64,000 nt of DNA from Escherichia coli (GTDB lineage: Bacteria; Pseudomonadota; Gammaproteobacteria; Enterobacterales; Enterobacteriaceae), in NCBI RefSeq assembly GCF_041886205.1, contig NZ_CP169029.1; one strand, 5' to 3'. Position 1 is the first letter of the stretch. Every line of letters begins with the position of its first letter. Shown piece after piece: positions 63,423 to 64,000 of the stretch. The position numbers and the translations under genes were made by a program. The notes under the pieces were generated by a model, which had not been told where the DNA came from, did not search any database, and saw only the letters and a list, made by a program, of their open reading frames with translations.

Positions 63423-64000
63423 CTATTGTCGCATCCAACTGGCCTGGTCAATCGACGCATCAAGTGGCAATGTCTCAATTGCATCGGCGGCCCCATTATG
63501 AGCTCCGCCAACAATAGCATCCATGGCATAACCGGGCTGGTAGGCGCTGTTAGTAATGCGGTCTGCAGCAATCAATCCAGGTACACCAGATACGGCATAA
63601 ATTAGTCCACCTGATGTCCATATTTCGATCGCATCTAGCCCCATTGGGTCTATCAAACTGCACCGGATTTCAGCGGATACTGATACAAATTCCATCCCCC
63701 CTTCAGCCCAATCGGATCCTGAGTGATATACCTCCCCTGCAGCGGGTCATAATAGCGGTGGCGGTTGTAATACAGGCCGGACTCCTCATCATACTGCTGC
63801 CCCGGCAGGCGGATAAGCTGCTGCAGGCTGATGCGGGTTCTCTTCATTCAGCAGGTTGCCCCATTCATCGTATTCTGCGCACCACGCTGTTGCCCCTTCC
63901 GTGCTGATAAGCGCCAGCGGCAGGCCGCGATGGTCGCAGTGGTACAGGTGGATTTTTCGCGCCGGCGTGTACACCGGGTCCATCTGGTTTTGCATCTGCT
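63423..64000 (-). pseudogene. Rhs protein 3' end (core end plus C-terminal tip), frame-disrupted; 5' part beyond window end
   Basis: Rhs core-end motifs [42 protein letters not shown] / [51 protein letters not shown] / (W)IDPMGL split over three track ORFs in two frames. Confidence 0.8.

Follow-up and report, generated by a model that had tools for sequence, protein, structure and literature searches.

Organization of the locus

The window, by which we mean the whole stretch of 64 000 nucleotides that was analyzed, is a segment of an Escherichia coli chromosome that ends in the yafV-proximal end of a T6SS-1/rhs island. The genes fadE (55932–58454), ivy and yafV (59124–59891) are 99–100% identical to their counterparts in many E. 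coli, and the backbone from about 6.7 kb up to position 59919 is 99.98–100% identical to that of strain wlxctx60. The usual order at this locus in many E. coli is yafV, ISAs1, an ISEc26-like pseudogene, yncO/ydcD (160 amino acids), Rhs, vgrG and hcp, and the usual Rhs protein, of about 1412 amino acids, consists of DUF6531, RHS repeats, the RHS core and a DUF6973 tip. The same gene order is found on the minus strand of the window, from a first ISAs1 element (ISAs1 #1) to the end of the Rhs core; vgrG, hcp and the T6SS genes, which other E. coli carry at the syntenic locus, would lie past position 64000. The features to which the analysis refers are as follows.

60114–61258, minus strand: ISAs1-family element #1, adjoining yafV; its 3' two-thirds are about 99% identical to other E. 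coli, and its 5' third (above 60914) lies in the altered tract
About 60914–63690, no strand: hyper-diverged tract; compared with each of the other records of the locus, it has 10–30 differences per 100 nt
61364–62523, minus strand: heavily altered transposase pseudogene of the ISAs1 family, ISEc26-like, with 85.9% identity to the copy in O26 and 82.2% identity to intact ISEc26
62706–63198, minus strand: degenerate remnant of the ydcD immunity gene; start codon lost, 13 indel columns, stops left after repair
63183–63635, minus strand: degenerate remnant of a DUF6973-type Rhs C-terminal toxin tip of the YdcD-linked type, from the alignment to the intact Rhs of strain DETEC-S792
63636–64000, minus strand: 3' end of the Rhs core (RHS repeat-associated core domain), running off the window at 64000
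63653–63636, minus strand: IDPMGL, the last residues of the Rhs core

Past yafV, the closest backbone relative, wlxctx60, differs from the window in carrying a fragment of IS256, a DUF6531/Rhs N-terminus that is truncated, and remnants of T6SS genes (NZ_AP045833.1, 829553–832659); the yafV side of the island thus varies strongly even between strains with nearly identical backbones. Two private one-base indels were also seen in the otherwise clean zone, namely a missing G at 59971 in the spacer between yafV and ISAs1 and an extra T at 60772 within ISAs1 #1, whereas the comparison of the backbone with the same strains gave no gaps in 6.5 kb.

Reading frames at the end of the Rhs core

Six-frame translation and the list of open reading frames (ORFs) reproduced the three-segment pattern of frames that had been described for the 3' end of this gene. 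The core up to ...NEENPHQ lies in one minus-strand frame, the ORF of which terminates at 63789, as stated in the original prediction; the conserved core-end segment lies in a different minus-strand frame (ORF 63653–63847), and the segment IDPMGLDAIEIW..., with DPMGL and the tip, is back in the first (ORF 63423–63695). Three frames are thus required to read from the core end into the tip between 63830 and 63636, with stops at 63789 and 63653–63655, and no single frame in the window continues through P-x4-DPxGL into the C-terminal toxin domain. The break in the Rhs frame falls within the RHS-associated core domain, and as the sequence is written the tip with the toxin is no longer coupled to the core.

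The closest core, an orphan that lies downstream of rhsC in E. coli EJN001 (locus L006), is 97.5% identical over 361 nt with six mismatches and three gaps. The gaps correspond to three one-base insertions in the window, all of them in the final 190 nt of the core.

63826–63827, minus strand: insertion 1, an extra C in cagCctg on the coding strand (G on the plus strand), from the alignments; it shifts the frame after ...NEENPHQ
63668–63670, minus strand: insertion 2, an extra A in ctgAaat, giving AAA in place of the AA of intact cores, from the alignments with EJN001 and DETEC-S792 (loci L006 and L002)
63654–63657, minus strand: insertion 3, an extra G in tttGata, from the alignments and translation; it falls at 63654 in the EJN001 alignment, and its placement depends on the reference (G at 63654 or within TTT/G)

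Upstream of 63830 the core aligned cleanly, and once the three insertions were deleted the core end was 99% identical to that of EJN001. Insertion 1, which had been predicted as an extra G near 63826, occurs in none of 14 134 matched Rhs core copies from 3876 E. coli genomes, each best match being 80/81 with one gap, and none of the three insertions occurs in any of the cores aligned here. Insertion 2 turns CTG AAT CCG (Leu-Asn-Pro) into ctgaaatcc, while insertion 3 produces the TGA and TAG stops and returns IDPMGL to the first frame. The frame is regained at DPMGL because three +1 insertions sum to three, and the return is an arithmetic coincidence rather than a compensation.

The second half of the predicted lesion did not survive these alignments. 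A missing C had been placed near 63655, which would have made a pair of one insertion and one compensating deletion; nothing is missing there, and two one-base insertions (63668–63670 and 63654) are found instead, bringing the number of insertions to three. Comparison with intact Rhs genes, the check that had been proposed, likewise upheld the first site and the reference reading HQLQQL that had been inferred for it, while the second site and its reading AVWIDP (KSGAVWIDPMGL) are contradicted, the latter by every aligned core. The ancestral reading is HQLQQL...YQYPLNPVQFIDPMGL, the second part of which is the real reading at the second site, and it restores the canonical P-x4-DPxGL end of the core. 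With the three insertions taken out, the core end scored 90.8 bits against TIGR03696 (cutoff 32.5), compared with 71.1 bits for the unrepaired ORF of 64 amino acids, and is thus recognized as a core domain. It also matched positions 1142–1261 of NF041261, the last 120 positions of this RHS core model, for which the cutoff of 2000 bits applies to a full-length protein including the N-terminal PAAR/DUF6531 region and YD repeats; the window contains only these positions of a gene that continues past 64000.

Toxin tip and immunity gene

Past DPMGL the window tracks the tip of Rhs proteins that are paired with YdcD, such as WP_271290511.1 of DETEC-S792, which occurs with YdcD WP_001561557.1. Homologues of the tip accompanied by an immunity gene, which had been suggested as a check, were thus found, and they include further pairs of a 1412-amino-acid Rhs and YdcD that adjoin vgrG and hcp at this same locus. 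The intact tip comprises 149 amino acids after DPMGL and matches DUF6973 (PF22322) with an E value of 2.7e-12 and 46.8 bits. The tip of about 70 amino acids that had been read from the window was too short: a further insertion at 63477/8 cuts the ORF off at about 70 residues, and, with at least five more indel events beyond this frameshift, the short tip is an artefact of reading frameshifted sequence. Indels were placed at about 63478, 63432, 63348, 63331, 63246–7 and 63193, an internal in-frame stop persists after their repair, and the ancestral stop lies at about 63183. The repaired tip reached only an E value of 0.034 and 14.2 bits against PF22322, the DUF6973 signal having been eroded from 46.8 to 14.2 bits by substitutions; at the DNA level the homology is unambiguous over the full length.

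A sequence search of the PDB with the DUF6973 tip of DETEC-S792 (positions 3358–3812 of its locus) found no solved homologue; the only match, to the structure 9uu0 of a T6SS effector from Bacteroides fragilis, is non-significant (E value 0.16). No mention of DUF6973 was found in the literature searched.

No intact cognate immunity gene lies directly downstream of Rhs in the window. The repaired ydcD fragment is nevertheless recognizable, with 103.4 bits against NF050020 (YdcD_fam; cutoff 65). For codon positions 1/2/3, substitution counts are 25/18/24 for the tip and 32/30/18 for ydcD, compared with 17/10/42 between genuinely diverged core subtypes. A functionally diverged allele of the tip was ruled out by this equal load at the three codon positions. 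As the locus is written, no toxin, immunity protein or transposase can come from it.

The hyper-diverged tract

The frameshift sites form the right margin of a much larger altered region, and insertion 1 lies 140 nt beyond its dense part. This tract of 2.8 kb, from about 60914 to 63690, comprises, besides ydcD and the Rhs tip, the ISEc26-like pseudogene and the 5' third of ISAs1 #1. It has about 16% private differences from all other E. coli copies of the locus, and its flanks are 99–100% identical to other E. coli. The difference profile, taken against the O26:H11 locus up to 63640 and against the nearest core (EJN001) beyond, is as follows.

Up to about 60900: 0–1%
60900–61100: 3–7 differences per 100 nt
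61100 to about 63690: 10–30 differences per 100 nt
63700–64000 (core): 0–1 difference per 100 nt

Among 5426 complete E. coli genomes the best match to the tract was 84.9% identical. Fourteen copies of the locus that were fetched hardly differ among themselves, and all have 84.3–84.5% identity to the window. Across the tip, ydcD and the two ISAs1 elements, roughly 270–430 substitutions and 70–130 small indels are unique to the window sequence. Relative-rate tests placed the change almost entirely on one branch: over 1099 aligned columns of the tip and ydcD there were 201 private differences in the window, compared with four in O157, three in DETEC-S792 and none in O26. The ISEc26-like copy in the window has all of the markers that distinguish the O26 pseudogene from intact ISEc26 (nine substitutions, a 1 nt insertion and a 5 nt deletion), together with about 299 private columns compared with none in O26. 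Since the window and O26 lineages are equally old, counted from an already inactivated ancestor, neutral decay cannot give none in one and hundreds in the other. We infer that the lesions reflect one event or process that is private to the window sequence.

Two further origins were tried and rejected. Neither an ancient allele nor introgression from a sister species accounts for the tract, as it shares its inactivating indels with the usual E. coli pseudogene allele, which itself has no private changes. Mixing of ISAs1 paralogues in the consensus was ruled out as well, the altered copy being 53% identical to the other ISAs1 type, compared with 60% for the clean copy.

Searches beyond the locus copies, which covered a gene-position index, a protein set, the GTDB representatives and the JGI metagenomes, gave no second instance of the altered sequence. 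No exact-product record was found for four ORF products in or adjoining the tract (64, 90, 145 and 262 amino acids), no exact 52-mer across the two junction insertions was found in the GTDB representatives and no exact 45-mer was found in the JGI metagenomes. A protein search with the 90-amino-acid tip ORF in a set of 5.8 billion clusters returned best matches that were 82–89% identical, all of the ordinary E. coli type. A peptide scan for the tip protein in the GTDB representatives, the patterns of which would miss decayed copies, found only four E. coli-like contigs from metagenome-assembled genomes, all 100% identical to the ordinary tip.

These four short contigs (L008–L011) are labelled Sporosarcina, Flavobacterium, Bacillota and Planococcaceae, and they encode a tip whose protein sequence is 100% identical to that of the E. 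coli Rhs tip. Over the whole tip-to-ISAs1 tract of the window, three of the four match at about 83–84%, as genuine E. coli loci do, and the E. coli tip in these bins is probably contamination with E. coli.

The core joined to the altered tip is itself of an unexpected kind. It is of the RhsA/B/C ('ybfC-orphan') type and only 81% identical to the core of the 14 syntenic records; because its subtype is unlike that of all 14 of these loci, core and tip form a chimeric junction at about 63655, for which recombination, gene conversion or a mis-join may be responsible. The cleaner parts of the region, namely the Rhs core and ISAs1 #1 in its 3' part, coincide exactly with its multi-copy sequences, a pattern that fits repair or polishing from paralogues and equally fits gene conversion.

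Spectrum of the changes

Within the tract, transitions outnumber transversions (249 and 185; ratio 1.35), and AT-to-GC changes number 263 compared with 81 GC-to-AT changes. On the plus strand the rate of change per base is 0.19 for T, 0.13 for A, 0.08 for C and 0.08 for G, A:T sites being changed about twice as often as G:C sites, and the strands are asymmetric, with A on the coding strand changed most (19%, compared with 13% for T, 8% for C and 8% for G). The 59 insertion events exceed the 13 deletion events by about 4.5:1, and none is longer than 5 nt. All four bases occur about equally often among those inserted, and a match to a neighbour was seen in only 13 of the 47 single-base insertions, so that homopolymers are not being extended. 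Substitutions that copy a neighbouring base (dislocation) showed no excess, with 121 observed and 120 expected. The differences are clustered, with a variance-to-mean ratio of 2.2–2.9 and 12 identical runs of at least 30 nt, compared with 1.3 expected. Realignment with unit costs gave 269 substitutions compared with 89 insertion and 40 deletion events, substitutions making up roughly 65% of the difference profile.

In bacteria, most indels come from slippage in homopolymers, with deletions favoured over insertions, and point mutation is biased from GC to AT. The tract is rich in insertions, takes up random bases and has an excess of AT-to-GC changes, and is therefore the reverse of the bacterial norm on all three counts. 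Equal branches, deletion-biased slippage indels and a GC-to-AT bias, the marks of a pseudogene decaying in a clock-like manner, are all lacking, and the pattern is incompatible with such decay. Adenine mutagenesis of the type caused by diversity-generating retroelements (DGRs), which affects only adenines of the template repeat and proceeds without indels, was also considered and rejected, all four bases being changed and at least 72 indel events being present.

Raw PacBio CLR reads are dominated by insertions with few mismatches, and raw ONT reads are rich in deletions. Raw noise of the PacBio or ONT kind was rejected as well, since the substitution-dominated tract fits neither of these profiles.

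Origin of the tract

On the evidence of the sequence, we infer a technical origin, in that the tract is probably non-biological, i.e. source sequence that is poorly supported, of low coverage, unpolished or otherwise corrupted. In this case positions 60914–63690 would have arisen as corrupted or weakly supported sequence in the source record, the Rhs core and the 3' part of ISAs1 #1, which are multi-copy, would have stayed clean or been pulled toward abundant paralogues, and the true locus would then probably be an ordinary allele. There is a precedent for assembly trouble of this sort in the rhs regions of EDL933, which were mis-sequenced in the first genome, as seen when the sequences of 2001 and 2014 were compared (PMC7216683). 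Against an artefact stand the high quality of the rest of the window, the spectrum, which is substitution-rich, A:T-preferring and richer in insertions than in deletions with a transition/transversion ratio of 1.35 and fits neither raw PacBio CLR nor raw ONT reads, and the natural decay of displaced or orphan Rhs tips through frameshifts and stops (PMC2935791). Insertion 1, which lies in an otherwise clean stretch of core, could be an independent and genuine mutation.

That the mutations are real is less likely. The locus would then be a degenerate Rhs-tip/ydcD/ISAs1 remnant that has undergone a lineage-specific burst, either by localized hypermutation or by recombinational import of a hypermutated copy, with breakpoints in the repeated ISAs1 and Rhs-core sequences and with gene conversion from paralogues keeping the multi-copy flanks clean. 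The excess of transitions and the strand asymmetry, with 19% of coding-strand A changed, are in keeping with this, as are the position of the tract boundaries in multi-copy sequences, the core type, which differs from the syntenic one as expected from recombination with another rhs locus, the documented decay of displaced tips (PMC2935791) and the poor fit of the error profile to common sequencing platforms. However, the relative-rate tests would demand an acceleration of more than 100-fold confined to 2.8 kb, the AT-to-GC excess and the bias to insertions of random bases oppose the known bacterial biases, and neither intermediate alleles among the 5426 genomes nor any trace in large protein and contig collections was found. 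We know of no mechanism that yields this spectrum. It is very improbable, in particular, that the tract was produced by an undescribed targeted or copy-associated hypermutation in E. coli, which would have to be a burst of more than 100-fold that prefers A:T sites, is strand-asymmetric, inserts random bases and is bounded by repeats. If true, this would point to a process such as error-prone copying of a transcript or of a single strand that was then recombined back, and the tract, if it is true DNA, would be evidence of a localized hypermutation process.

Explanations confined to the core end account for less of the region. In the original prediction, Rhs was intact apart from an inserted and a deleted base that compensate each other, and ended in a short tip of about 70 amino acids, the lesions being either two sequencing errors or a recent double lesion. 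The frame does depart and come back, and the core is clean upstream of 63830; but there are three insertions and no deletion, AVWIDP is at odds with all aligned cores, the tip has its own frameshift at 63477/8 followed by at least five more, and ydcD and both IS elements are damaged to the same degree, which together leave this reading highly improbable. Recoding, in which programmed ribosomal frameshifting or transcriptional slippage would bypass the frameshifts and a full Rhs toxin would still be made, has the net return of the frame in its favour and nothing else. It would require three successive +1 events at non-conserved sites, whereas no known slippery motif was seen on reading the three sites by eye, insertion 1 is carried by 0 of the 14 134 core copies and none of the three by any aligned core, and at least six further indels and the in-frame stop in the tip would also need to be bypassed. 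A conserved slippery sequence common to homologues, as is characteristic of programmed frameshifting, was not seen at these sites, and we consider that such bypassing almost certainly does not occur.

Because the differences do not come from ordinary evolution, the last 3 kb or so of the window is unfit for gene calls, for inventories of toxins and immunity proteins and for evolutionary inference, pending a check of the reads.

Relation to known Rhs loci

The locus is of an already known kind, in a non-functional state. It resembles the intact T6SS-1-linked Rhs/YdcD loci, such as that of DETEC-S792 and that of the 1412-amino-acid Rhs by vgrG and hcp in CP020107, in position, in order and in full-length homology of the tip and ydcD. 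Unlike these, the copy in the window is about 16% different, has many indels and stops and no intact ORF, and carries a core subtype that is 81% identical. A closer likeness in state is found at the same locus in O157 (z0272, 'RhsH') and O26 (ECO26_RS01195), where a non-functional Rhs remnant is flanked by ISAs1 (H-repeat) elements; in the annotation of both O26 and O157, ydcD is frameshifted and Rhs is N-terminally truncated. However, those remnants differ from each other by less than 1% and have one or a few lesions, whereas the window has about 200 private differences per kilobase-scale segment.

Among orphan sequences, the core of EJN001 downstream of rhsC, which is ybfC-linked, shares the 99% identical core end without the three insertions, but has a different tip, the immunity gene ybfC and a different locus. 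Gene relics and displaced Rhs C-terminal tips, which resemble the remnant in the window, were described by Jackson et al. (2009) (PMC2935791). The mis-sequenced rhs genes of EDL933 (PMC7216683) are comparable in that rhs is multi-copy and prone to assembly errors, the discrepancy in that case having been settled by PCR; they are unlike the window in that the errors were wrong joins and C-termini, not substitutions and indels scattered along a tract on the kilobase scale. Broken Rhs ends, orphan tips and a frameshifted ydcD next to ISAs1 are common and well described in E. coli, and as such carry small biological weight.

Other features of the window

Elsewhere in the window, near thrW and proA, an IS1 copy (35185–35952) adjoins a two-gene remnant, the whole spanning 35185–37205. 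The remnant encodes a 326-amino-acid SMEK_N/CTD10 protein (36225–37205, minus strand) and an 83-amino-acid MC6 protein (36005–36256, minus strand). The insert is missing from the closest relative, wlxctx60. In other E. coli the SMEK_N/CTD10 and MC6 genes are followed by a gene for a 581-amino-acid DUF2326 protein in an integrative element, forming a conflict or defence module of the ABC-three-component type, and the window seems to have lost this third gene at the IS1.
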